From: Candidatus Sungiibacteriota bacterium
GTDB taxonomy: Bacteria > Patescibacteriota > Minisyncoccia > Sungbacterales > HO2-52-23
Length of the DNA: 64,000 bases
Direction: 5' to 3'
Assembly (NCBI GenBank): GCA_016432465.1
Contig: CP066690.1
Location: 462,823 to 526,822, forward strand
Part shown: in pieces, positions 30,580 to 58,113 of the stretch
Numbering within the stretch: the first letter of the stretch is position 1
Layout of the letters: the number at the start of each line of letters is the position of its first letter
Program-made: the position numbers and the translations under genes
The notes under the pieces: model-generated
The model's database searches: none
Seen by the model: the letters and a program-made list of their open reading frames with translations, nothing else
What the model was told of the DNA's origin: nothing

Positions 30580-31599
30580 CTAACTAATTAGTGGTTTTTG
30601 TCTATTGACCTTGAATCCCAGGTGTTGGTAGGCGCGTTCTGTGGCAAGCCGTCCCCTGGGGGTGCGCTCAAGAAAACCAAGCTGCATAAGATACGGTTCG
30701 TAGACCTCCTCCAGTGTGTCTTCCTCTTCCGAAGAAGCGGCGGCTATGGCCTGCAGACCCACCGGCCCCCCGCCGAACTTGGATATTACCACCTCAAGAA
30801 TTTTGCGATCCATGGGCTCAAGGCCCAGTTCGTCCACCTGCAAAAGTTCCATGGTTTTGCTGGCGGCGCCTTGACTAACAACGCCAGATCCGTGTACTTC
30901 GGCATAGTCGCGTACTCTTTTGAGTAAACGGTTGGCAACACGGGGAGTAAAACGGGAGGAACGCGCAATTATTTTTACCGCAGCAGGTTCCGTGGCTATT
31001 CCGAGGATCCGCGCCGAGCGTTCTATAATTTTTTCTATATCTTCGTTAGTATAAAAGTCAAGACGAAACGAACTCCCAAAACGAGAACGAAGCGGCGAGG
31101 AGAGAAGACCTATGCGGGTGGTGGCGGCAATCATTGTAAAGGGCGGAAGTTCTATTTGAATAATTCTCGCCGAAGGCCCCTTGCCTATTATGATATCAAG
31201 ATTGCGTGTTTCCATGGCCGGATACAGTACTTCCTCAACCAGTTTATTTAGGCGGTGTACCTCGTCAATAAACAAAACGTCACCCGGCGTAAGGTTGGTC
31301 AAGATAGAAGCGAGGTCGCCCACCCGCTCAACGGCAGGACCCGAAGTTACGCGGATATTGGTGTTCATTTCCCGCGCAATAAGATGGGCCAGACTTGTTT
31401 TTCCGAGGCCGGCCGGGCCGGATAGCAGCACGTGTTCTATTGGTTCCCCCCGCCTTTGGGCCGCATCAATGAGGATGCGCAGGTTTCTCTTGGTGTGTTC
31501 CTGCCCAATGTAATCGTTCCAGCGCTGCGGACGTAGGGCAAGGTCAAGCGAAACGTCCTCTTTTTCTTTGTGGGGGGCAGTGATGGGGCTGGTTGACAT
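30580..31599 (-). CDS. ruvB: Holliday junction branch-migration helicase RuvB
   Basis: Walker [19 protein letters not shown]; Walker [10 protein letters not shown]; sensor motifs. The track ORF is extended to 31713 across the promoter region; the internal Met (MSTSPITAP) is preferred. Confidence 0.85.
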
Positions 31600-31701
31600 G
31601 ATGATTAATACTGGTATAATTATTAATGACGATTGACAAAAAAGTAAACTGTTTTTATAGTGCGACTGGGGGGGCGTGGCCCCTTTTTGGTTGTTATTTT
31701 T

Positions 31702-31831
31702 GGCCGTGGGCAATTAAGGTTTACATCCTTAAATGGGGATTTTTACACCAGGGCCAGCCGGTGTTAGCTCGCTGGTGCCTGGGAGAAATCCTAGCCTCCG
31801 TGTTCCCAAACCGGAGTAATTGCCCACGGCC
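31702..31831. repeat. 130-nt element bounded by perfect 15-bp inverted repeats (GGCCGTGGGCAATTA ... TAATTGCCCACGGCC); candidate structured small RNA or miniature repeat
   Basis: Terminal inverted repeat seen directly; an internal hairpin CCAGGGCCAGC...GCTGGTGCCTGG. Sits between the pilB stop and the ruvB promoter. Confidence 0.35.
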
Positions 31832-31850
31832 GAATATAGCAACCCCCAAT

Positions 31851-35533: not shown

Positions 35534-38199
35534 AAAAATTAGTTTTAGTTGATGCCCACGCCGTGATCCATCGCGCCTATCACGCTCTGCCCCCGCTTAC
35601 CACGTCAAGCGGCGAGCCAACCAACGCCGTTTACGGATTTACCACTATTTTTTTGCGGATTTTGCGCGAACTAAAACCCGATTATATCGCGGCTGCTTTT
35701 GATTTGCCGGGACCCACCTTCCGGCACATTGCTTACGAGCGCTATAAGGCCCAGCGGCCGGAGACACCCGCGGAGCTTTCAAGTCAATTTGCAAAAGTAA
35801 GAGAGGTGCTGGAGGCCTTTGGCGTTCCCGTTTTTGAAAAAGAAGGATACGAGGCCGACGACGTTATAGGAACCATTGCCCGAAAATTTGAGAAAGACAG
35901 AAAAGTGGAAATTATTATAGTGACGGGCGATATGGACACCCTGCAGCTTGTTCGTACGCGAGTTAGGGTCTATGCGATGAAAAAAGGAATAACAGAGACC
36001 GTAACCTATGATGAAAAAGCAGTTGAGGAGCGCTATGGATTTAAACCCGAACAAGTAGTTGATTTTAAAGGCCTTAAGGGCGACCCCTCGGATAATATCC
36101 CCGGAGTAAAAGGAATCGGCGAGAAAACCGCCACCGAACTTATTAAAGAGTTCGGCTCCATAGACGGGGTTTATAAGGCGCTGAAGAAAGGAACAAAAAA
36201 AATTTCGCCAGCCATCGCAGAAAAACTGCGTCAAGGCAAGGAGGACGCCAGATTTTCGCTGGATCTCGCGACAATCAACACTAAAGTTCCCGTTAAATTC
36301 GGCTTGGAGGCAATGAAGTATCGTGAAAAAAAAGACGGAAAGGTTAGCGCCGTTTTCCAAAAATTGGGATTTTATAGTCTTCTCAAGCGCCTTAATGTTG
36401 AGGGCGCGCCAAAATCGGAGCAAGCCGCACTGCTTGTTGTTCCCGCCAGAACCCGCGCCATTGAGGAGTTGACGGGCGTAGCAGAGCTTGAACAAGTTTT
36501 TAAAAATGCGCCAAGAACCGGCTTGGTCCTTGAGAAGGAAGATCTTTTTCTAATCCCTGAAAAAGGAGGCAGGGTTTATAAGTTAGACCCGAAACTTTTA
36601 AAAGAAGACAAGGTTAAAAGATTTTTTGAGACGCAGCGCTTCTTTGTTCACAACGGCAAAGCGCTTATTCATTTTCTGCATAGATTCAACATAGAACCCG
36701 GTCCGGTTGAGTTTGATATAATGCTTGCCGCCTATTTAACGAGCCAATTTACGCGCGACTTCTCTTTTCTGGCCGTTGCCAGCCGCGAGCTGGGGCGGCT
36801 TGTTTCGCAAAATCCGCGGGACGAAATTTCTCACTTTTTTGAGATTGTTGAGTCGCTCAAATCAAAACTAAGCGAGGGAAAAATCAAAAAAGTTTTTGAG
36901 GAGATTGAGCTTCCGGCAGTGAGAGTTTTGGCGGATATGGAGGAGCGGGGGATACTTATTGATGCCGCTTTTTTAAAAAGGCTTGCCCAAGAAGTTGATA
37001 AAAAACTTGAGGACCTCACCGCGCTAATCTATAAACTTGCCGGTGGAAATTTTAATATAAATTCCTCCCAGCAGCTCTCCCGTATTCTTTTTGAAAAATT
37101 AAACATTAAAACCCACGGACTACGCAAAACCGAGAAAGGCGGAGTGATTTCCACCGGCGCCTCGGAGCTTGAAAAACTAAAAGGCGAACACCCGATTATT
37201 GTAAAAATTCTTGGCTATAGGGAGCTTATAAAACTGAAAACTACATATATAGATACACTGCCGCGGCTTGTAAACCCCAAAACCGGACGATTGCACACAA
37301 CCTATAATCAAACAGGAACTGCCACTGGACGTCTTTCTTCCTCCGACCCCAATCTCCAAAATATTCCTATTATGACAGAGCTGGGACGCGAAATTAGAAA
37401 AGCATTTGTTGCTCAAGACGAGTACGAGCTAGTCTCTTTTGACTACTCCCAAATTGAGCTTCGCGTGGCCGCGCATATTGCCAACGATAAAAAAATGATT
37501 GAGGCTTTTAAAAAAGGCATGGACATACATAAACTTACCGCCTCCGAGATTTATAATATTCCTTTGGAAAAAGTAACGCCGGATTTACGGCGCGCAGCCA
37601 AAACTCTTAATTTCGGGGTTCTTTATGGCATGGGGTCTCAAGCTTTTGCCGAGTCAATGGCTAGGTCCCCCGAAGGGGGCCGCCACCCCGGCCCAGCGGG
37701 CCTAGGGGCGGGGATGTCGCGCGAAGATGCCAAAAAATTTATTGATGAATATTTTCACGATTTTTCAGGGGTCAAAAAATATATTGAAGACACAAAAAGA
37801 TTTGTTGAAGAAAATGGATATGTGGAAACTATCTTTGGCCGCCGCCGCTATATTCCCGAGATTCACTCGCCCAACTGGCAATTGAGGCGCGAAGCGGAAC
37901 GCATGGCCATCAACATGCCCATACAGGGGTCCAGCACCGGCGATATTATCAAACTCGCGATGATTAAGGTTGATGAGTGGATTCGGAAAGCCGCCCCAGA
38001 GGGGCGGGAAAAACTAGAAAATGGTGTCCGTATGCTTTTGCAGGTTCATGACGAGCTTTTATTTGAAATCAAAAAAAGGCTTGTTCAAAAGGTCACGCCC
38101 CAAATAAGAAAAATTATGGAGGGTGCCGTTGAGTTAAAGGTGCCGCTCGTGGTGGATGCAAAAACGGGCAGGAATTGGGGCGAGCAGAAGAGTCTGTAA
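35530..38199 (+). CDS. polA: DNA polymerase I
   Basis: 889 aa; N-terminal 5-prime nuclease (YGFTTIFLRIL, GDPSDNIPGVKGIGEKTA); C-terminal polymerase motifs A (LVSFDYSQIELRVAAHIA), B (RRAAKTLNFGVLYGM) and C (LLQVHDELLFE). Confidence 0.9.
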   Translation: MKKLVLVDAHAVIHRAYHALPPLTTSSGEPTNAVYGFTTIFLRILRELKPDYIAAAFDLPGPTFRHIAYERYKAQRPETPAELSSQFAKVREVLEAFGVPVFEKEGYEADDVIGTIARKFEKDRKVEIIIVTGDMDTLQLVRTRVRVYAMKKGITETVTYDEKAVEERYGFKPEQVVDFKGLKGDPSDNIPGVKGIGEKTATELIKEFGSIDGVYKALKKGTKKISPAIAEKLRQGKEDARFSLDLATINTKVPVKFGLEAMKYREKKDGKVSAVFQKLGFYSLLKRLNVEGAPKSEQAALLVVPARTRAIEELTGVAELEQVFKNAPRTGLVLEKEDLFLIPEKGGRVYKLDPKLLKEDKVKRFFETQRFFVHNGKALIHFLHRFNIEPGPVEFDIMLAAYLTSQFTRDFSFLAVASRELGRLVSQNPRDEISHFFEIVESLKSKLSEGKIKKVFEEIELPAVRVLADMEERGILIDAAFLKRLAQEVDKKLEDLTALIYKLAGGNFNINSSQQLSRILFEKLNIKTHGLRKTEKGGVISTGASELEKLKGEHPIIVKILGYRELIKLKTTYIDTLPRLVNPKTGRLHTTYNQTGTATGRLSSSDPNLQNIPIMTELGREIRKAFVAQDEYELVSFDYSQIELRVAAHIANDKKMIEAFKKGMDIHKLTASEIYNIPLEKVTPDLRRAAKTLNFGVLYGMGSQAFAESMARSPEGGRHPGPAGLGAGMSREDAKKFIDEYFHDFSGVKKYIEDTKRFVEENGYVETIFGRRRYIPEIHSPNWQLRREAERMAINMPIQGSSTGDIIKLAMIKVDEWIRKAAPEGREKLENGVRMLLQVHDELLFEIKKRLVQKVTPQIRKIMEGAVELKVPLVVDAKTGRNWGEQKSL
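37660..37706 (+). repeat. roughly 48-bp GC-rich CCTAGG-bounded palindromic element apparently inserted in frame inside polA
   Basis: GCTAGGTCCCCCGAAGGGGGCCGCCACCCCGGCCCAGCGGGCCTAGG encodes RSPEGGRHPGPAGLG between polymerase motif B and the following helix, where canonical Pol I has no such insert; GC of about 78%. Confidence 0.45.
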
Positions 38200-38583
38200 C
38201 ACGTCCGCGCGGCAAGTTAAGTAGCGGATGAAATATAAAAAATGCCATGGAAAATAAGAAGGCCCGCTTCAGGCTAGAAACCTTGGCGGGCACGAAGAAC
38301 AGAACGAATGATTGCGGTTTCTGTAGCGATCCGCAGATCGAATCGCTACAGGAGGGGTTGCCCCTCGAAAGAACAGTCACCTCTCGCTCGGTGGCCACAA
38401 TCCTACGGATTTAGGCCACGAGGTCATTGAGATGGGTGGCGCACCACCATCGTAATTACAGTATAGCATATCTACAGAATCTGTCAAGCCCCTGCGGTTC
38501 GGGGAAGAAATACAAAAGATGTCATGGGTCATGGGGCGTAGGGATAAAAAAAGAGCCGTATAAACGGCTTAAGATGGGGAAGG

Positions 38584-38778
38584 TTACTTCCAGTACCACC
38601 AGAGACGAAACCCAGCGTTGAGACCAATCAACATGAAAATGTTGTAAATAAGCGGTTGTACGCCCAAGCTATTAAGCATTTTCGATTGCGGTAACGATCC
38701 AGAGCCAAGATCAACCAGAACGCTTAGCAAGATGAAGAGACAGGATAGAAAGACAACCCAAGCTGAGAATTTCTTCAT
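38584..38778 (-). CDS. small hydrophobic two-TM peptide (64 aa)
   Basis: MKKFSAWVVFLSCLFILLSVLV...; SD GGGGGT 6 nt before the ATG; an upstream TTGACA promoter on the minus strand; a downstream hairpin AAGCCGTTTATACGGCTC followed by TTTTTTT on the minus strand. Confidence 0.45.
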   Translation of the reverse strand: MKKFSAWVVFLSCLFILLSVLVDLGSGSLPQSKMLNSLGVQPLIYNIFMLIGLNAGFRLWWYWK

Positions 38779-38995
38779 TGGCTTACCCCCAGGTTAAGGG
38801 ACTAGAACTATGAGTATGATATAATAAGGAACGGGTTTCTGTCAACTCTGTATCAAGAAAAATCCGCATGACATTTTCTGTTGTGGGATGAGTAACAGGG
38901 GTGTCATGGGATGCAGAGGACGAATTTTGGCAAAGAAAAAAAGCGGTTTAGAGTGACGCTCAGCACCTTGATTCAGCGACGCCTTCTGGTTGTGG

Positions 38996-39115
38996 ATTAC
39001 AGAACGATGAACATCATTCCTACCGCCACATTCATCATTCCGATAGGAGTGTTTCCCGCCAGCACCCAGATAAGGCCACTGACGCAGAAGAATAGCCCTG
39101 CAATCGCGGAACCCA
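38996..39115 (-). CDS. 39-aa hydrophobic single-TM peptide (hand-annotated; below the ORF-track cutoff)
   Basis: MGSAIAGLFFCVSGLIWVLAGNTPIGMMNVAVGMMFIVL; perfect SD AAAGGAGG 7 nt before the ATG; a TTGACA-18-TATAAT promoter on the minus strand at about 39150-39185. Confidence 0.45.
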
Positions 39116-39466
39116 TCACAGCACCTCCTTTGATTGGAATACGGATCTAGTTGCATTATAGCATTAAACTGAACACTTTGTCAATGGAAAAAAAGCCGCA
39201 TGACATTTTCTATAATTCGGCAGTATCACAGCTGGGAAAACGGCTTATCCGCCGGAGGCGGACCCGCCTCTGGCGGGAAATAAAGCCTCCTTCGCATCCT
39301 CCTTCGTCATAGACTTCGGATGGACGTAGTAAAGCTACAGAGGGCCGAGGGAAAATCCCCGCCTACGCCAAGGCTTCGGCGGGCAGACCTGCGATTGGTT
39401 ATTGAAAAAGCAAAAGTGTCATGGGTATAGGGGATAAACACCAAAAATGTTTTATGAGGACAAATT

Positions 39467-40261
39467 ATGCCCGAACTTCCTGAAGTAGAAACAATTGTGA
39501 GATTTTTGAGACCCAAAATCCGCGGAAAGCGGATTTTGAGTATGGAAATAAGGGGTAGGCGGGTGGCGCGCGGGCACAAGAACCCGCAGGAACTAAATAG
39601 GGCCGTTGCCGGCAGGAAGATAAGTGAAGTTAACCGGACTGGGAAAAATATAATTCTTGAGTTGTCGGGAGGCGCACGACTTGCGATTCACTTGATGATG
39701 ACCGGCCGGCTTTTTTGGAATCCGAAAGAAAAACAAATACATGACCGCTTGGTGCTAAAGTTGTCCGGAGGAAATGACCTTGTTTTTAACGACATACGTC
39801 AATTTGGGTGGTGCAGGGTTCTTAAACCGAGTGGGAAACTAGCCGGACCCGATGTGTTAAGTCTGGGGTTTAATGAGTTTAAAAGTTTAGTGAGTCCACG
39901 CCCAGCGCTGATTAAAAACCTTCTTCTCAATCAGAAAGTTATTTCCGGAATTGGCAATATCTACTCTGATGAAATTTTGTGGTACGCTTGTCTAAGGCCA
40001 ACGCGAAGGGCAAATACTTTCTCTGGACGCGAACTTAAAAAATTTTATCAAGCAATGCGCCATGTTCTTTTGCTGGCCATCAAAAAAGAAGGCACCAGCA
40101 GTCGGGACTATCGGAAACCGGACGGAACAGAAGGGGGATACTATAAAATAAGGAAAGCGTATCAGCGGGCAGGGAAGCAATGTTTGCGTGACGGCGCAAC
40201 TATCAAGCGCATTAAAATAGGAAGCCGCTCGGCGCATTTTTGCCCCAAACACCAGAAATAA
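39467..40261 (+). CDS. fpg: formamidopyrimidine-DNA glycosylase (Fpg/MutM/Nei family)
   Basis: N-terminal MPELPEVE catalytic Pro-Glu; H2TH region; C-terminal zinc finger C..C...C. Confidence 0.8.
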   Translation: MPELPEVETIVRFLRPKIRGKRILSMEIRGRRVARGHKNPQELNRAVAGRKISEVNRTGKNIILELSGGARLAIHLMMTGRLFWNPKEKQIHDRLVLKLSGGNDLVFNDIRQFGWCRVLKPSGKLAGPDVLSLGFNEFKSLVSPRPALIKNLLLNQKVISGIGNIYSDEILWYACLRPTRRANTFSGRELKKFYQAMRHVLLLAIKKEGTSSRDYRKPDGTEGGYYKIRKAYQRAGKQCLRDGATIKRIKIGSRSAHFCPKHQK

Positions 40262-41558: not shown

Positions 41559-43592
41559 TTACTCTGCTGTCAATTGTTTAATCCGGTCGCGTATTCGCGC
41601 CGCCAGCTCAAAATCCATCTCTCCTGCGGCGCGTTTCATCTCGCGCTCCAGAGATTTTACGATTTCTCTGGTTGGGCCCTTGGGAAGAGGAATCTCTTCT
41701 TCCTTTTTAAGTTCCGCCAAAATTGATTTTCTAATTTCTTTTTTGATTTGTTGAGGGGTAATGCCGTGTTTACGGTTATACTCTTTCTGGGTTTCCCTGC
41801 GGCGGTTGGTTTCGTTTACCGCCGCCTTCATTGAGCCGGTCAAGGTATCCGCATAGAGTATTACTTTCCCGTCAATGTGGCGCGCAGCGCGGCCAATAAT
41901 TTGCAGAAGGGTGGTTTCATTTCGCAGAAATCCTTCTTTGTCAGCATCCAGAATTGCAATAAATGAAACCTCGGGAAGATCAAGTCCCTCCCGTAAAAGA
42001 TTAATTCCCACCAAGACATCGTGTTCTCCTTCACGAAGTTTTTTCAGAATCTCCGGCCGTTCCAGCGTTTTTATTTCCGAATGCAGGTACTCGGCCTTAA
42101 TTCCCGCCTCGGTTAAATATTCGGCAATATCCTCGGCGAGCCTTTTGGTAAGCGCCATAACAAGCGAGCGCTCTTTTTTAGTCACGCGCTTTTTTATTTC
42201 AGCAATTACGTCTTTAATTTGGTGTTTGGTGGGACGAACCTCAATCTGCGGGTCAAGAATTCCGGTCGGCCTTATTAGTTGTTCAACAATGTGCGGACGA
42301 GATTTTTCTATTTCGTACAGAGCCGGAGTTGCCGATACATAGATTAGCTGGCCAACGTTTTTATTAAATTCTTCAAACTTTAGCGGCCGGTTATCCAAAG
42401 CAGAGGGCAGACGAAATCCGTATTTAATGAGCACCTCTTTTCGCGCCCGATCGCCATTATACATTCCGCGGACTTGGGGTACGGTAGCATGCGACTCGTC
42501 AATAAAAGTTAGAAAATCGCTGCCGTGGGCGTAGCGAAAATAGTCAATAAGCGTGTGGGGCGGAGTTCCCGGCTTGCGAAAATCAAGTTGGCGCGAATAG
42601 TTCTCAATTCCGTTTACATAGCCGGTTGAACGGAGCATCTCCATATCAAATTCCGTGCGTTGTTTAAGGCGGGCCGCTTCTCCCGACGCTTCGTTTATAT
42701 CTTTAGATAAGGAAGTCGGGACCCCGACATCGTAAAGCGATCGTCGGGATAAAATTTTTCCTTGCTTTTTTAACTCTGCAAGCCGCCCCTTAAGTTCTCT
42801 TTGGATATTTACAATAGCAAGTTCCAGTTTTTCCTGCGGGGTGACAAAGTGTTTGGCGGGGAAAATCTTGAAAGCTTGTAGTCCGATTGAGCGCCGTTTG
42901 ACGCCAATGATTTTATTTTTTTCTCCGCCCGAGGCGGATCCGCCTTTGGCGGAAAACTCTACGGCAACAATGTCTTCTCCGGAGGGAAGATAAATCTCAA
43001 CCACATTTTCTCTAACGCGAAAGTGGCCCTGGCGGGGGTTAATGGGGTTACGCGCGTACTGAAGCAGTATCAGGTGTTTAATAAGTTCTTTTTGGGAAAG
43101 TTTTTCGCCAACCCTTAATTCCACTGAAATTTTCTGATACTCTTCCGGGTCGCCAATGCCGTAGATGCAGGAAACAGAGGCAACGATGATTACGTCGTTT
43201 CGCGTCAGTAAAGAAGCGGTAGAGGCATGGCGCAGGGCATCTATCATCTCATTGATTTTGGCGTCTTTTTCAATGTAGGTGTCGGTCTGCGGAATATAGG
43301 CCTCGGGCTGGTAGTAGTCATAGTAGGAAACAAAATAATGCACGGCATTTTCCGGAAAAAATTCTTTAAATTCCTGATAAAGTTGGGCGGCAAGGGTTTT
43401 ATTGTGCGATATAACCAGCGTTGGTTTTTGAACTCGCTCAACTACGTTTGCCATCGTGAAGGTTTTTCCGCTGCCCGTGACCCCAAGAAGCGTTTGGTGT
43501 CGCGCGCCCGCACGCAAATTCGCCACCAGTTGATCGGTGGCTTGGGGTTGGTCGCCTGTCGGCCTGAAACTTGACACAAGTCTAAACTTCAT
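41559..43592 (-). CDS. uvrB: excinuclease ABC subunit B
   Basis: 677 aa; Walker A GVTGSGKTFTMANVVE; helicase motifs; C-terminal UVR domain. Confidence 0.9.
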   Translation of the reverse strand: MKFRLVSSFRPTGDQPQATDQLVANLRAGARHQTLLGVTGSGKTFTMANVVERVQKPTLVISHNKTLAAQLYQEFKEFFPENAVHYFVSYYDYYQPEAYIPQTDTYIEKDAKINEMIDALRHASTASLLTRNDVIIVASVSCIYGIGDPEEYQKISVELRVGEKLSQKELIKHLILLQYARNPINPRQGHFRVRENVVEIYLPSGEDIVAVEFSAKGGSASGGEKNKIIGVKRRSIGLQAFKIFPAKHFVTPQEKLELAIVNIQRELKGRLAELKKQGKILSRRSLYDVGVPTSLSKDINEASGEAARLKQRTEFDMEMLRSTGYVNGIENYSRQLDFRKPGTPPHTLIDYFRYAHGSDFLTFIDESHATVPQVRGMYNGDRARKEVLIKYGFRLPSALDNRPLKFEEFNKNVGQLIYVSATPALYEIEKSRPHIVEQLIRPTGILDPQIEVRPTKHQIKDVIAEIKKRVTKKERSLVMALTKRLAEDIAEYLTEAGIKAEYLHSEIKTLERPEILKKLREGEHDVLVGINLLREGLDLPEVSFIAILDADKEGFLRNETTLLQIIGRAARHIDGKVILYADTLTGSMKAAVNETNRRRETQKEYNRKHGITPQQIKKEIRKSILAELKKEEEIPLPKGPTREIVKSLEREMKRAAGEMDFELAARIRDRIKQLTAE

Positions 43593-43629
43593 AATATACT
43601 CACCCTAGTTATTTTATGAGGAGTCAGGG

Positions 43630-43908
43630 GTGCCTAAACCCTTAATGTGGTTTCAATGCATAATTTGTGATGAGGTTTATAAAACAGAAGAAGAAGCGGC
43701 ACATTGCGAGAAACAGGGTCTGTCACCGATAAGATATCCAGTTAACACCGCAGTATTGCTGGTTCATCCCGTCACTCACATTCTGGTGGATGCCCGCGTC
43801 GAACATATTAAAGTCCAACCCCGGTCGCACAAACTCTTTTTTGAACTGGTTGGTGTCCGTGGGTTTAAATTTATAGTAGAGGAACACCTACTTCGTCCTA
43901 AGAACTAG
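43630..43908 (+). CDS. small hypothetical protein with a CxxC...HC putative zinc-binding motif (cassette ORF 1)
   Basis: 92 aa; CIICDEVYKTEEEAAHCEKQG; SD GAGGAG upstream; followed by a terminator hairpin. Confidence 0.45.
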   Translation: MPKPLMWFQCIICDEVYKTEEEAAHCEKQGLSPIRYPVNTAVLLVHPVTHILVDARVEHIKVQPRSHKLFFELVGVRGFKFIVEEHLLRPKN

Positions 43909-43916
43909 TAATATTT

Positions 43917-43988
43917 AGCCGGCACGATACCGGCTTCTTCTTTTTTCAAAAACGAAAACTTGACACTGGTAAAGTTGTTTGATACTCT
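43917..43988 (+). promoter_or_regulatory. terminator-promoter module 1: hairpin AGCCGGCACGATACCGGCT, TTCTTCTTTTTTCAAAAAC, then a TTGACA -35 and a weak -10
   Basis: Compound element seen directly; reiterated at 44255, 44751 and 45215. Confidence 0.45.
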
Positions 43989-44024
43989 TTGATTAGATCA
44001 CGGGTACTAAAAAGGGGTCACTAA

Positions 44025-44213
44025 ATGGAATTTCTGGCGGGCGTCACTAAGGGTGTTTGTCCATATTGCCGCGACAGGCATCCAGTTAGAAGGGCCCAGG
44101 TTATGGGTGGTCATATAGCAGTTATGGATAGTCATAGAGTATCCGATTCTGGCGGTTGGTGCCGCGGTGAAGGGCTTGCGCCGGAATTTCTCTACGGGTT
44201 GCGCTCAGACTGA
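44025..44213 (+). CDS. small hypothetical protein (cassette ORF 2, 62 aa; Cys/His-containing)
   Basis: ATG preceded by AAGGGG; lies between module 1 and module 2. Confidence 0.35.
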   Translation: MEFLAGVTKGVCPYCRDRHPVRRAQVMGGHIAVMDSHRVSDSGGWCRGEGLAPEFLYGLRSD

Positions 44214-44254
44214 CCCAATCTTTTTTATCAATCTCATGCTGGTTGAGCTTGGCT

Positions 44255-44311
44255 CTGCCGGCTTTTTTCTTTTTTCAAAAACTTGACATAGATTCCTTGT
44301 TTGCATAAGAT
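44255..44311 (+). promoter_or_regulatory. terminator-promoter module 2: GCCGGC, TTTTTTCTTTTTTCAAAAAC, then TTGACA-17-TAAGAT
   Basis: Near-identical copy of the module core CTTTTTTCAAAAACTTGACA. Confidence 0.5.
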
Positions 44312-44340
44312 ACGAACGGTAGCCCTGAGGGGGGTATGCT

Positions 44341-45268: not shown

Positions 45269-45850
45269 ATGATTTCATTTCTTTCCGGCCAAGTTGAACT
45301 AAAAGGAGAGCGCCTCGTTATAATAAACGTTGGCAATGTTGGTTATCGCGTATTTGCTTCAACAGAAACTCTCAAAAAAATACCAGAAAAAGGAGGGAAT
45401 GTCAAAGTCTGGACGCATCAATACGTGCGGGAAGACGCGCTGGAACTCTATGGTTTTTTACACCTTGCCGAACTTGAACTTTTTGAAATTTTAATTAAAG
45501 TCCCGGGCATTGGACCCAAAACTGCTTTGGGTGTAATGAGTGTTGCGCCGATTGATACGCTGCGAAAAGCAATTGCCTCCGGCGATACGTCGTATCTGAC
45601 TAAAGTTTCCGGCATTGGCCGCAAAACCGCGGAGAAAATTATAATTGAACTTAGGGAAAAAATGGCTGGCCGCGGAGTTTTGGTTGAAGCGCCGGAATTA
45701 AAAGAAGAAGCTGACGCGCTGGAGGCATTGGTGTCTCTGGGATATTCGCAGCGGGAAGCGCGAGAAGCACTGCAGCAGATTCCGCAAGAAGTTTCCAGTG
45801 TTGAAAAACGCGTAAAAGAGGCGCTAAAGAAACTTAGCCGAGCCCAATGA
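45269..45850 (+). CDS. ruvA: Holliday junction DNA helicase subunit RuvA
   Basis: Begins MISFLSGQVELKGERLVIINVGNVGYRVF; HhH motifs (GIGPKTA, GIGRKTAEKI); about 190 aa. Confidence 0.85.
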   Translation: MISFLSGQVELKGERLVIINVGNVGYRVFASTETLKKIPEKGGNVKVWTHQYVREDALELYGFLHLAELELFEILIKVPGIGPKTALGVMSVAPIDTLRKAIASGDTSYLTKVSGIGRKTAEKIIIELREKMAGRGVLVEAPELKEEADALEALVSLGYSQREAREALQQIPQEVSSVEKRVKEALKKLSRAQ

Positions 45851-46782
45851 TATCGTTCTTACAGTCTAAAGAATGGGAAGAATTCCAAAAATCAGTGGGA
45901 AGAAAAACATGGCGTCTTGGTGGGGCGCTTGTTATTCAGCACACACTGCCGCTCGGCTTCAACTATTTATACTGTCCGCGCCCCTCGGCCCCGACGGAAC
46001 AGTTTTTTAGAGAGACGGCAAAAATCGCCGCACGCGAGAAAAGTATTTTTCTAAAAATTGACCCAACCGAACAACCCCAAATTATCCCTAGGCCGCCTTG
46101 GGCGGCCGGGATCCCGGCCAAGAAAGGCCTAGGTACAAATTCCCCGCCTCTGCCAAGGCTACGGCTGGCAAGCAAATTTCAAACAAGTGCAGCGCTTCAG
46201 CCGCAAAAAAGCTTGGTTATTAACCTACAAAAATCCGAAGAAGACTTATTGGGCGCAATGTATGAGAAGACGCGTTATAATATACGACTTGCAGAACGCC
46301 ACGGGGTAGGGGTAAATCAGGCGGGTGCGCTGGAAGAGTTTTGGAAGTTGTTGGTGGAGACTGCGCGTCGGGACAAGTTTTATACTCACGAGCAAAATTA
46401 CTACGAAAAACTTCTTATGGCTTGTTCCGATAATTTTTCCAACGAACTCTTTTTTGCAAGACAAGGGAGGACACTAATCGCAGCCGCCCTGATAAACTTC
46501 TTTAAGCCCTCACAAACAGTAACTTATCTTCACGGTGCCTCTCTGCGTGAACACAAAGAGGTGATGGCGCCCCATCTTCTTCACTGGCGCATCATGCAGG
46601 ATGCCAAACGCCGCGGGTTTTCGTTCTACGATATGTGGGGGATTGATGAAAAAAAGTGGCCGGGGATTACAAGATTTAAACTTGGGTTTGGTGGAGAAGT
46701 AGTGGAATATCCGGATTCTATTGATATAATTTATGGGCAGTTTTGGTATGGTATTTATAAAATTTCAAAGGCCGTTTTATGA
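45847..46782 (+). CDS. FemAB-family peptidoglycan interpeptide-bridge aminoacyltransferase
   Basis: 311 aa; N-terminal FLQSKEWEEFQ signature and GNAT-like halves; carries an internal GC-rich insert. Confidence 0.65.
   Translation: MISFLQSKEWEEFQKSVGRKTWRLGGALVIQHTLPLGFNYLYCPRPSAPTEQFFRETAKIAAREKSIFLKIDPTEQPQIIPRPPWAAGIPAKKGLGTNSPPLPRLRLASKFQTSAALQPQKSLVINLQKSEEDLLGAMYEKTRYNIRLAERHGVGVNQAGALEEFWKLLVETARRDKFYTHEQNYYEKLLMACSDNFSNELFFARQGRTLIAAALINFFKPSQTVTYLHGASLREHKEVMAPHLLHWRIMQDAKRRGFSFYDMWGIDEKKWPGITRFKLGFGGEVVEYPDSIDIIYGQFWYGIYKISKAVL
46086..46135 (+). repeat. roughly 48-bp CCTAGG-bounded GC-rich palindromic element apparently inserted in frame in the femAB-like gene
   Basis: CCTAGGCCGCCTTGGGCGGCCGGGATCCCGGCCAAGAAAGGCCTAGG; 8-bp TIR CCTAGGCC/GGCCTAGG; shares GGCCGGGATCCCGG with the intergenic copy at 54494-54620. 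Confidence 0.45.
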
Positions 46783-56177: not shown

Positions 56178-56206
56178 TTGACTTTTAAGTATTTTTGAAG
56201 TATAAT
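56178..56206 (+). promoter_or_regulatory. strong sigma70-like promoter TTGACT-17-TATAAT driving the tRNA-cluster transcript
   Basis: Consensus -10 and 5/6 -35 hexamers with a 17-nt spacer, immediately after the YkuK terminator hairpin ATAGCCCCTTTTTGGGGCTAT. Confidence 0.5.
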
Positions 56207-56249
56207 TAAAGTATACAGATACTGTGGGGAGGGGTCTAGGGGAATACGT

Positions 56250-56330
56250 GTAATTTAATTCGGGGCTCTCCGCTCCCGTCCCTCCTCGGCGAGCTCGCCC
56301 TTCGGGCGAAGGGGCCCCGAATTAAATTAC
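56250..56330 (+). repeat. 81-nt hairpin with perfect 17-bp arms (GTAATTTAATTCGGGGC ... GCCCCGAATTAAATTAC) enclosing a GC-rich core, in the tRNA leader
   Basis: Perfect inverted repeat seen directly; the core carries further GC hairpins (GCCCTTCGGGC). Confidence 0.5.
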
Positions 56331-56468
56331 AGGGATCTTTGAATTTAAGAGGGGACTATTGTGACCGTCCAAACAGGGGGGCAAGTGGGACACTCACTAA
56401 ATCACAAATTGGGGTGTTTTCTCACCGTGTCCTCCGATTTGGGCGGTCAAAAGGCCGCAGAAACGGTT

Positions 56469-56544
56469 GGGCCCGTAGCTCAACTGGCAGAGCCTCCGGC
56501 TCATAACCGGCAGGTTCCTGGTTCGAGTCCAGGCGGGCCCACCA
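56469..56544 (+). tRNA. tRNA-Met (anticodon CAT; elongator-type G1-C72; could alternatively be tRNA-Ile2), CCA encoded
   Basis: Hand-folded cloverleaf: acceptor GGGCCCG/CGGGCCC, D arm GCTC..GAGC, anticodon loop CTCATAA, T arm CCTGG-TTCGAGT-CCAGG. Confidence 0.85.
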
Positions 56545-56580
56545 AATAGTTTCTAAACAGGACAGAAAGGAGGATGTCAC

Positions 56581-56976
56581 ATGTGGGTTGATGGTAACGG
56601 CAGGCGGCGTTCCGCCTGCAAAAAGACAGTTCGTGGGGCGGCCCTTTTCTCGCACGCGGCGAGACGGGACCGAAACCTTCACGGTCTTGAGGTTCCCGAA
56701 CCGCTACAGCGGTTTGGTGAGCGGACGAGCGAGGAGCCTCGGCGTGAGCCTCGGCAGCGCAGTGGACCGACGACCCGTGCCGAACAGCACGTGGAACAGT
56801 GCGAGCGGGTCGAGGTGATTCCCGCAATGCCATCACATAAGGATCTCGGGATGATGGGAGCTTTGGCGAGCCTTATGGCCCTAGGCGAATCGCACACGTC
56901 CAGTCTTGCCCGGACATGGCGCTCCCTCAAGGAGGTCCCCCGCCGGATTTTCCCGCGCAGGAGGGGCGACAGGTAA
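56581..56976 (+). CDS. possible Arg-rich small protein (131 aa) with a strong SD, inside a GC-rich island; could instead be non-coding structured RNA
   Basis: AAAGGAGG 7 nt before the ATG; about 62% GC; Arg-rich translation of low confidence. Confidence 0.2.
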   Translation: MWVDGNGRRRSACKKTVRGAALFSHAARRDRNLHGLEVPEPLQRFGERTSEEPRREPRQRSGPTTRAEQHVEQCERVEVIPAMPSHKDLGMMGALASLMALGESHTSSLARTWRSLKEVPRRIFPRRRGDR

Positions 56977-56987
56977 CAGGGTTCAGT

Positions 56988-57062
56988 GACGCCGTCGTCT
57001 AGTGGTCAAGATCTGGGCCCTTCAAGCCCGGGACAAGGGTTCAAATCCCTTCGGCGTCACCA
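56988..57062 (+). tRNA. tRNA-Glu (anticodon TTC), CCA encoded
   Basis: Hand-folded: acceptor GACGCCG/CGGCGTC, anticodon loop CCTTCAA, T arm AAGGG-TTCAAAT-CCCTT. Confidence 0.85.
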
Positions 57063-57088
57063 TCCCATACGGTTTTTACGTAGTCGGT

Positions 57089-57165
57089 GGGCTCGTAGCT
57101 CAACTTGGTAGAGCAGCGGGCTTTTAACCCGAGGGTTGCAGGTTCAACTCCTGCCGGGCCCACCA
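57089..57165 (+). tRNA. tRNA-Lys (anticodon TTT), CCA encoded
   Basis: Hand-folded: acceptor GGGCTCG/CGGGCCC, anticodon loop CTTTTAA, T arm GCAGG-TTCAACT-CCTGC. Confidence 0.85.
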
Positions 57166-57207
57166 AATTAAGTCTGGCCATCAGCACATAAAGGAGGTGA
57201 GGCTTAG

Positions 57208-57300
57208 GTGTATCGTTTCCAGATCACAGGCGGCGGCATCATCATCGTGGGCAATGAGGTCCGCGATTGGGTGAGCCGTAGCTGGTCCGAGGTGAAGTGA
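57208..57300 (+). CDS. possible 30-aa peptide (GTG start) with a perfect SD immediately after tRNA-Lys
   Basis: AAAGGAGGTG then GTG; translation VYRFQITGGGIIIVGNEVRDWVSRSWSEVK; speculative. Confidence 0.2.
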   Translation: MYRFQITGGGIIIVGNEVRDWVSRSWSEVK

Positions 57301-57513
57301 CCCGCCTCTTATAACGGGGAACACCAAAATACCGGTGTTCCCCCTCGAGCCGGTCCCATAAGGTTTCGACGAATAGGTTTCTCCCCAAAGTAATTTTGTA
57401 CCTTTTACAATTAACTTAGGAGGAACCTACGATCTTTATGGGATCAGCTCGGGTATTTATTATTACAGCTCTTAAAGAGACCACGTAAGAGATATTTTTC
57501 ATCTTCGCAAAAA

Positions 57514-57547
57514 CCGTCCCTCTGTCAGTGACAGAGGGGCGGTTTTT
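57514..57547 (+). terminator. rho-independent terminator CCGTCCCTCTGTCAGTGACAGAGGGGCGG followed by TTTTT
   Basis: 12-bp stem plus a T-run upstream of tRNA-Arg. Confidence 0.6.
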
Positions 57548-57587
57548 GCTTGAAAGAGTTACGCGGCAAAGATATTATTGAATTGCT

Positions 57588-57660
57588 GTCCCTGTAGTTT
57601 AGCGGATAGAACACTGGCCTCCGAAGCCAGAGATCGGGGGTTCGAATCCTCCCAGGGACG
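57588..57660 (+). tRNA. tRNA-Arg (anticodon CCG), CCA not encoded
   Basis: Hand-folded: acceptor GTCCCTG/CAGGGAC, anticodon loop CTCCGAA, T arm GGGGG-TTCGAAT-CCTCC. Confidence 0.8.
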
Positions 57661-57681
57661 TTCAAGGTTAGTAAAACCCGC

Positions 57682-58113
57682 ATGAAAGTCCGTATCCGAA
57701 GAATAGATAAATCTCTTCCTTTGCCGGGGTATAAAACCCAAGGCGCAGTTGCTTTTGATCTGGCGGCGCGTCTTTCCATGACCATTACCCCGCGGTCAGT
57801 TGCTTATATTCCCCTTAATGTGGCGTTGGAACCGCCGGAGGGCTATATGCTGCTCCTGGCAGCGCGCTCTTCTCTTCATAAAAAGGGTTTGATGCTGGCC
57901 AACGGCGTAGGAATCGGTGACCGTGATTTTTCCGGAAACGAGGACGAGTATCACGCCGCGCTTTATAATTTCACCGACGGCGAAGTTACTGTTGAGCGTG
58001 GAGAGAGGGTGGTGCAGGGGATGCTTAAACCCTACGAGAAAGCAGAATGGCACGAGGTGGAGGATTTAGAAAATATCTCCCGTGGAGGTTTTGGCACGAC
58101 TGGCCCATTTTAA
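57682..58113 (+). CDS. dut: dUTP diphosphatase (dUTPase/dCTP deaminase superfamily)
   Basis: 143 aa; conserved dUTPase motifs, including GVGIGDRDFSGNEDEYHAALYNF. Confidence 0.7.
   Translation: MKVRIRRIDKSLPLPGYKTQGAVAFDLAARLSMTITPRSVAYIPLNVALEPPEGYMLLLAARSSLHKKGLMLANGVGIGDRDFSGNEDEYHAALYNFTDGEVTVERGERVVQGMLKPYEKAEWHEVEDLENISRGGFGTTGPF

Follow-up and report, generated by a model that had tools for sequence, protein, structure and literature searches.

The polA-fpg spacer of a Candidatus Sungiibacteriota genome: a possible lineage-specific island of reverse-strand mini-units with two small membrane peptides and an orphan structured RNA

The long spacer between the DNA-repair genes polA and fpg in an uncultured Candidatus Sungiibacteriota bacterium (contig CP066690.1) may be a lineage-specific accessory island that consists of three reverse-strand mini-units, two of them encoding small membrane peptides and the third an orphan structured small RNA (sRNA), with duplicated terminators between them; we give this reading a probability of roughly one half. 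The spacer occupies positions 38200-39466 (1267 nt) of the window, by which we mean the whole 64-kb stretch of DNA that was analysed and from which all coordinates are taken, and it lies between the polA stop codon at 38199 and the ATG of fpg at 39467. A first-pass annotation of this DNA had called the spacer unusually long and devoid of a large open reading frame (ORF), and this holds. According to a crude gene map built from codon-scored ORFs of the window, the median gap between genes is 38 nt, only two gaps exceed 1 kb, and the spacer is the second-longest gap after the tRNA cluster region. It contains no convincing large ORF, the longest three (104, 94 and 90 aa) all having null-like codon scores, and its plus strand is A-rich, as are the flanking coding strands. 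The feature is well delimited and real, and all elements listed in the first-pass annotation are present in it, although small corrections of the coordinates are needed. Two things had been overlooked, namely a third strong promoter on the minus strand and the nature of the GC-rich hairpins at 39249-39388, which are repeat modules.

We propose three units because promoters, leaders, Shine-Dalgarno (SD) sequences, ORFs or a stable fold, and terminators sit where they would be expected. When sigma-70 promoters were sought as TTGACA-N16-18-TATAAT with at most one mismatch, a criterion under which shuffles of the window yield about 0.85 sites, seven near-consensus sites were found in the window, and three of the seven, all on the minus strand, fall in the spacer, which makes up 2% of it. 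P1 (39184 to 39155) reads TTGACA-18-TATAAT with a TG extension and matches the consensus at 12/12 positions. P2 (38845 to 38816; TTGACA-18-TATCAT) matches at 11/12, its -35 hexamer beginning 12 nt past the U-run of the preceding terminator, and P3 (38487 to 38460; TTGACA-16-TATACT, with a TG extension), also at 11/12, aims into a hairpin-rich segment. P1 and P2 are followed by leaders of ~32 and ~31 nt, respectively, and then by SD, ATG and ORF, and a highly stable fold lies downstream of P3. On the plus strand of the spacer, the best promoter candidate matches at only 9/12 positions. Read in this way, the minus strand of the spacer would carry three monocistronic units arranged back to back and running counter to both polA and fpg.

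In the first unit, P1 would direct the synthesis of a 39-aa charge-free membrane peptide and transcription would end at a hairpin followed by U5. The ORF, p39 (MGSAIAGLFFCVSGLIWVLAGNTPIGMMNVAVGMMFIVL), lies downstream of P1 at 38997-39116 on the minus strand, stop codon included, one position away from the 38996-39115 given in the first-pass annotation, which had otherwise recognized the gene together with its perfect SD and its TTGACA-18-TATAAT promoter. The SD, AAAGGAGGTG, runs from 39131 to 39122, and its GGAGG core (39128 to 39124) stands 7 nt from the ATG. The predicted peptide has no charged residue, a grand average of hydropathy (GRAVY) of 1.73 and, on inspection, small-xxx-small motifs; an 85-nt 3' region separates the ORF from the terminator hairpin at 38863-38912. 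In the second unit, P2 would drive a 64-aa peptide with two transmembrane (TM) segments, followed by a hairpin and U7. This ORF, p64, is found downstream of P2 at 38584-38778 on the minus strand, encodes two hydrophobic segments and is preceded by the SD GGGGGT at 38790 to 38785. Its intrinsic terminator (38546-38569, minus strand) consists of a 6-bp GC-rich hairpin with the stem at 38554-38569 (AGCCGU-UUAU-ACGGCU; dG -10.5, z -4.3) and U7, and is located 15 nt past the stop codon. The gene, its SD, its TTGACA promoter and its hairpin with T7 had all been reported before, as had the presence of complete expression signals for both ORFs; as far as sequence signals go, each indeed has a near-consensus promoter, a correctly spaced SD and a downstream terminator. 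It is mainly this precise promoter-SD-ATG-terminator geometry that argues for p39 and p64 being genes.

The recurring motif in the spacer, which the first-pass annotation had taken for potential hairpins or operator sites, fits into the same layout. Three copies of TGTCATGGG and two of its partner CCGCATGACATTTTCT had been listed on the plus strand, and these numbers are correct; the positions are 38520, 38902 and 39417 rather than 38519, 38896 and 39417 for the former, and 38864 and 39196 rather than 38864 and 39197 for the latter. The three copies of TGTCATGGG are the only ones in the window, against 0.37 expected, and a count of three was reached in 1/100 shuffles. CCGCATGACATTTTCT is part of a 22-nt repeat with 95% identity and has no copy elsewhere in the window. 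On the minus strand, CCCAUGACA, the complement of TGTCATGGG, pairs with UGUCAUGCGG, the complement of CCGCATGACA, and a U-run follows. This is seen in the intrinsic terminator of the p39 unit (38858-38912, minus strand), where CCCAUGACA (plus-strand TGTCATGGG, 38902-38910) and UGUCAUGCGG (plus-strand CCGCATGACA, 38864-38873) form a hairpin at 38863-38912 with a dG of -16.0 kcal/mol (z -4.24; 0/200 shuffles equally stable) ahead of U5 at 38862 to 38858. It is seen again at 39189-39425 on the minus strand, where CCCAUGACA at 39425 to 39417 and UGUCAUGCGG at 39205 to 39196 precede U7 at 39195 to 39189. Nested GC-rich hairpin modules, about 190 nt in all, lie within the stem of this second copy, and the minimum free energy (MFE) structure of 39183-39436 on the minus strand uses the long-range closing stem 39196..39425, as does the plus-strand fold. 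Since both copies pair into one stem with a U-run immediately after it, TGTCATGGG and CCGCATGACATTTTCT are most readily understood as a pair of arms belonging to an intrinsic (Rho-independent) terminator that was duplicated locally, rather than as an operator; of the two earlier suggestions, the hairpins stand, as the stems fold and a U-run follows, whereas operators are less apt, the terminator arms being the better explanation. The 3' arm is 5 nt from the -35 element of P1 but 12 nt from that of P2, which also speaks against a positioned activator site. When the three units were aligned, they shared nothing in architecture beyond the motif.

The remaining TGTCATGGG copy (38520-38528) is a lone arm with a 7-nt GTCATGG duplication, and it is situated within a direct repeat, R1 (38491-38548). 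No minus-strand promoter matching at 9/12 or more positions was found upstream of the hairpin at 39189-39425, and for this reason the second copy may be a relic or an insulator. According to the proposed scheme, the terminator hairpin would have been duplicated locally, with the intact copy ending the p39 unit and the copy upstream of P1 having been filled with palindromic modules, and the solo arm in the ~55-nt direct repeat would point to local duplication or recombination.

The third unit, beginning after R1 (~55 nt), would lead from P3 through an sRNA of ~200 nt with multiple hairpins to a terminator. The candidate RNA (38249-38453, minus strand) contains five hairpins, one of them being CTGTAGCGATCCG/CGAATCGCTACAG at 38321-38351, and has an MFE of -85.8 kcal/mol (z -6.3) and no SD-led ORF. 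Towards its 3' end, the hairpin at 38262-38291 is followed by CUUCUUAUUUU, a terminator-like arrangement about 50 nt from the convergent polA stop codon. That the segment 38270-38400 is rich in hairpins had been noted before and is borne out, as the fold of 38245-38460 is much more stable than those of shuffles whichever strand is taken (z -6.3 for the minus and -4.1 for the plus strand). The covariance search of 38200-39466 against Rfam, which had been proposed as a check, found no known structured RNA: at the gathering score there was no relevant match in the spacer, including 38249-38453 and 39189-39425, or in the whole window, and at E<=10 there were only three chance-level matches of 11-22 bits, compared with gathering scores of 49-125, so that neither of the two structured segments matches an Rfam family. 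Signal recognition particle RNA, RNase P RNA, transfer-messenger RNA and 6S RNA were considered as identities for the P3 RNA and set aside, as their covariance models gave no match and the fold is not 6S-like. The hairpin array was also rejected as a classical terminator of polA, with no U-run found on the plus strand after any of the hairpins.

Comparison with other genomes of the Candidate Phyla Radiation (CPR) points to the polA-fpg gap being a variable site and the spacer being a lineage-specific fill. In 68 fetched CPR loci, the order polA then fpg on one strand is conserved and the gap ranges from -2 to 4705 nt with unrelated content; the gaps in the closer relatives measure -2, 7, 12, 357, 449, 592 and about 3000 nt and are filled with unrelated genes. 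When the spacer DNA and the peptides were compared with 147 fetched loci by blastn and tblastn, only short GC-rich repeat modules were matched, and the tblastn check on peptide conservation suggested in the first-pass annotation accordingly gave no homologue among these loci. The converse search by tblastn, with each of the ORFs in the polA-fpg spacers of relatives against this spacer, gave no remnants. There was no match to the spacer DNA in the phage collection, and among plasmids there was a single marginal 40-nt match (E 8e-3) to a sequence that is the same in two Agrobacterium plasmids. If the spacer is an accessory island, it would be an insert at a variable site that splits a gene pair which is contiguous in some of the closest relatives. 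With three strong promoters opposing polA, fpg would probably be uncoupled from it and use its own weak promoter. As a separate observation, several relatives encode a small two-TM protein directly after polA (L068 1527-1724, L145 6253-6462, and L075 6168-6449 / L076 1476-1757, all on the plus strand of the fetched loci) with the motif D-x-H-x-Y-x2-(G/R)-RWPG-x-TLL; this protein is absent from the window and unrelated to p64.

Part of the spacer is made up of repeats. R1 resembles a second direct repeat, R2 (39390-39440, plus strand), just upstream of fpg, the ~55-nt repeats giving a local alignment score of 31 where shuffles average 14.1 (sd 2.0; 0/300 as high), and this bracketing of the p64-p39 block suggests duplication or recombination. 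R2 holds TGTCATGGG at 39417-39425 and the one plausible candidate for an fpg promoter that was seen on reading the sequence, TTGAAA-18-TATAGG, which is weak and below the threshold of our scan, and which may act as the promoter of fpg. The GC-rich hairpins upstream of P1 are of a different kind. The GGCGG double palindrome CCGCCGGAGGCGGACCCGCCTCTGGCGG at 39249-39276 is a multi-copy module with a second copy inside uvrB at 42925-42952 (in a 36-nt version at 42921-42956) and 86-89% identical copies in other CPR genomes, including one inside the fpg gene of locus L008 (4596-4633). It is followed by module X, a 66-nt hairpin at about 39286-39351, and module Y, a 30-nt hairpin at about 39359-39388 with a related copy at 46137-46170 inside the ORF 45847-46782. 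Both X and Y are missing in a strain variant (L062) from a co-occurring strain in sample SRR12113428. The two modules therefore vary by insertion/deletion within the population: deleting both from the window reproduces exactly the 5' end of this variant (its positions 1-23, compared with 39278-39400 of the window), and the variant also carries one single-nucleotide polymorphism. Logan assemblies obtained independently for this organism agree with the window at 100% identity and end at 39266 and 39397, that is, at the modules. Being multi-copy (42925-42952, 46137-46170 and other CPR genomes) and polymorphic by insertion and deletion, the modules at 39249-39388 qualify as palindromic repeats resembling repetitive extragenic palindromic (REP) sequences or Rickettsia palindromic elements. 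GC-rich palindromic modules are also found in frame inside genes, namely in uvrB (42921-42956), where the insertion adds ...AKGGSASGGEK..., in polA (37660-37712), where it adds ~ARSPEGGRHPGPAGLG, a segment that PolA of loci L001 and L002 does not have, and in the ORF 45847-46782 (46090-46170). A full-text literature search found no published description of in-frame palindromic repeats in CPR.

These repeats also invite the idea that the spacer is a small mobile cassette resembling a miniature inverted-repeat transposable element (MITE), with CCGCATGACATTTT and AAAGTGTCATGGG as terminal inverted repeats and the ~900-bp block from R1 to R2 as an insertion within a duplicated target or attachment sequence. 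Inverted arms do bracket segments of 47 nt and 230 nt, ~55-nt direct repeats stand on both sides of the p64-p39 block and the site varies among relatives. However, the arms have no further copy in the window outside the spacer, as would be expected of a miniature mobile element, the 13 matches to the 16-mer in viral contigs were judged to be at about chance level, and there is no transposase or integrase nearby. Furthermore, terminator function accounts directly for the U-run that comes after each pair of arms on the same strand. A mobile cassette therefore seems to us quite improbable.

Several observations weigh against an island of functional mini-units, and they need to be considered together. 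Neither the peptides nor the P3 RNA have a homologue in any collection searched. For p39, none was found in the protein search (done with a 40-aa GTG-start version), in Pfam, NCBIfam, PHROGs and PDB or in the fetched loci. For p64, a word-index search of 5.8 billion clusters gave nothing, and an exhaustive HMMER search of 1.84 billion representatives gave one match, an artefact from an immunoglobulin-repeat protein; in Pfam, NCBIfam, PHROGs and PDB there was no significant family match for either peptide. The nearest Fpg in the 5.8 billion clusters is only 70% identical and the nearest C-terminal segment of PolA (399 aa) about 75%, and the collections contain no closer genome. The codon score of p39 is borderline, with 5-8% of the null (out-of-frame ORFs) scoring as high, and that of p64 is null-like and indistinguishable from non-coding frames, in a test that is biased against hydrophobic proteins. 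While p39 was called as a gene on independent Logan sequence, p64 was not called by the gene caller on the Logan contigs, and all Logan copies are identical in both ORFs, which leaves no polymorphism and no signal in the ratio of non-synonymous to synonymous substitutions. Moreover, an A-rich plus strand would tend to make ORFs on the reverse strand T-rich and, as follows from the codon table, hydrophobic by composition alone. As to the third unit, the hairpins of the P3 RNA fold about equally on either strand, so that only the promoter and the U-tract assign the RNA to the minus strand. Taking gene calls, codon scores and plus-strand composition together, p39 is probably translated and for p64 the odds are about even; translation thus appears likelier for p39 than for p64.

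The same observations give some weight to the view that the spacer is non-functional debris left by local duplication or recombination and by palindromic mini-elements. Its ORFs would then be chance hydrophobic frames in units that are non-coding or yield spurious transcripts, even though the promoters may fire, and 38250-38450 would be a stack of palindromic elements without a dedicated sRNA. This would account for the direct repeats R1 and R2 and the duplicated terminator, for the polymorphic, multi-copy GC-rich modules, for the lack of homologues of anything in the spacer, for the null-like codon score of p64, for the occurrence of several further ORFs of 50-100 aa by chance, for the hydrophobic reverse frames that an A-rich plus strand favours and for the strand symmetry of the hairpins. 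Chance would hardly be expected to place a 12/12 promoter and, 7 nt from an ATG, a perfect SD ahead of p39 with a terminator behind it, or to give p64 an 11/12 promoter, an SD and, 15 nt past its stop codon, a canonical terminator. In addition, the hairpins at 38250-38450 show no significant similarity to the repeat modules, and no copy of these hairpins occurs in the other fetched loci. We regard debris as rather unlikely.

The first-pass annotation had gone further and likened the locus to a type I toxin-antitoxin (TA) or small membrane-toxin system. In such a system, p39 and/or p64 would be membrane-damaging toxins whose mRNAs are repressed by an antisense or trans-acting sRNA encoded in the spacer, either the P3 RNA or a convergent transcript from the plus strand. 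It is in line with this idea that the intergenic island holds two short hydrophobic ORFs (39 and 64 aa), that each has a promoter of its own and that a candidate sRNA adjoins them. p39, with a GRAVY of 1.73, falls within the usual size range of small hydrophobic TM peptides (<~60 aa), which p64 exceeds slightly. Type I toxins tend to be poorly conserved and to look like orphans, and a weak promoter-like site on the plus strand at 38927-38954 (9/12) would yield a transcript antisense to the 3' end of p39. However, no plus-strand promoter exceeds 9/12, and the duplex energies and complementary runs between sRNA and mRNAs are at the level of shuffles, with one nominal exception, an 11-nt run that involves the repeat-module region and was equalled in 1/100 shuffles, uncorrected for eight tests. 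The short leaders (~31-32 nt) are unstructured (z +0.5 and +1.3), the SD is locally largely unpaired and the full p39 mRNA has only mild long-range pairing (z -1.8); exposed, near-perfect SD sequences and a perfect P1 are the opposite of what is expected when translation is tightly repressed by mRNA structure. Neither peptide matches Hok, Ldr, Fst, TxpA, Ibs or any other described toxin family in Pfam, NCBIfam, PHROGs or PDB, p39 is uncharged and p64 exceeds most type I toxins in length. Apart from the two short hydrophobic ORFs themselves, the earlier claim is thus without positive support, there being no good antisense promoter, no complementarity, no leader that sequesters the SD and no family match, and the type I TA idea is unproven rather than refuted; we consider it improbable.

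Returning to the three proposed mini-units, their architecture is normal for this genome. The four other strong promoters of the window lead to structured non-coding stretches (those at 31593 and 31633 to 31668-31850, fold z -7.5, and that at 56178 to 56213-56468, fold z -5.6, ahead of a tRNA) or to a small monocistronic gene (that at 43571, to a 92-aa ORF). As these promoters also serve small or structured units, a strong consensus promoter is, in this genome, the mark of a short autonomous unit, a pattern that the spacer matches. Some of these places deserve mention in their own right. At 31593-31850 (plus strand), two nearly perfect promoters in tandem (12/12 at 31593-31620, 11/12 at 31633-31661) precede a 183-nt non-coding stretch, 31668-31850, between a ruvB-like gene and a gene for a type II/IV secretion ATPase. 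The predicted fold of this stretch is a long closed stem that includes a three-way junction (-97.8 kcal/mol, z -7.5). The stretch has no Rfam match and is a strong candidate for a structured RNA as yet unannotated. At 56178-57700 (plus strand), an 11/12 promoter at 56178-56206 is followed by the highly structured ~250 nt of 56213-56468 (z -5.6), which runs into a cluster of four tRNAs with interspersed short ORFs preceded by AAAGGAGG; the only Rfam matches in this region are the tRNAs. Finally, at 43571-44340 (plus strand), downstream of the divergent uvrB start, lies a series of monocistronic genes whose products are small (92, 62 and 134 aa) and in several cases rich in Cys; each gene has its own TTGACA-type promoter and a hairpin/T-run terminator, in the same style of insulated mini-unit as in the polA-fpg spacer.

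Transcription of the units, translation of the peptides, their insertion into the membrane and any function are predicted from the DNA sequence, and the most likely function would be that of small accessory membrane proteins and an orphan sRNA rather than of a demonstrated toxin system. Should the units be expressed, a CPR genome would gain an orphan sRNA and two small membrane proteins that lack annotation. To our knowledge, hardly any small genes or regulatory RNAs have been charted in CPR, and our full-text literature search found nothing on type I TA systems or small RNAs in this group. A bolder version would be a CPR-specific module of small membrane peptides and an sRNA, that is, a type I-like toxin or regulator of an undescribed kind, or a P3 RNA that represents a new class of structured sRNA acting on the peptide genes or on polA read-through. 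We think that this is improbable too, but if true, the locus would be among the first of its kind described in Patescibacteria. Functional significance would be confined to one lineage, as the spacer is conserved in no other genome. The locus is nevertheless an example of a conserved polA-fpg pair split by oppositely oriented mini-genes, and it teaches that a conspicuous repeated motif can be a set of duplicated terminators and that richness in hairpins can stem largely from unstable or mobile palindromic modules, which are found in coding genes as well.

The proposed units can be compared with several known systems. The classical type I pairs hok/sok, ldr/rdl, ibs/sib, tisB/istR, txpA/ratA and fst resemble the spacer in having short hydrophobic ORFs with a promoter, a terminator and an sRNA candidate nearby; in contrast to them, the spacer lacks a good antisense promoter, complementarity, a repressive leader and homology to their families, its SD sequences are exposed and one of its peptides is uncharged. 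The modules at 39249-39388 and their relatives are similar to Rickettsia palindromic elements and REP-like sequences in that they are short, palindromic, multi-copy and strain-variable and occur both between genes and in frame within them, but they are unrelated in sequence, reside in a CPR host and are much shorter (28-66 nt). With duplicated intrinsic terminators, the motif hairpins share stems of 9-11 bp directly followed by U5-U7 on the transcribed strand and a position at the end of a short unit, directly upstream of the next promoter; they differ in their unusually large loops, one of 28 nt and the other of about 190 nt of nested repeat hairpins, and in that the second copy has no identifiable upstream promoter. 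As for the peptides themselves, the closest likeness we can offer is to small accessory membrane proteins of the KdpF, CydX, AcrZ and MgtS type, which are likewise 30-65 aa long, have one or two TM segments and readily escape annotation. The known members of this group are encoded in or next to the operon of the complex that they modulate, whereas p39 and p64 stand alone, face the opposite way to their neighbours and are without homologue.

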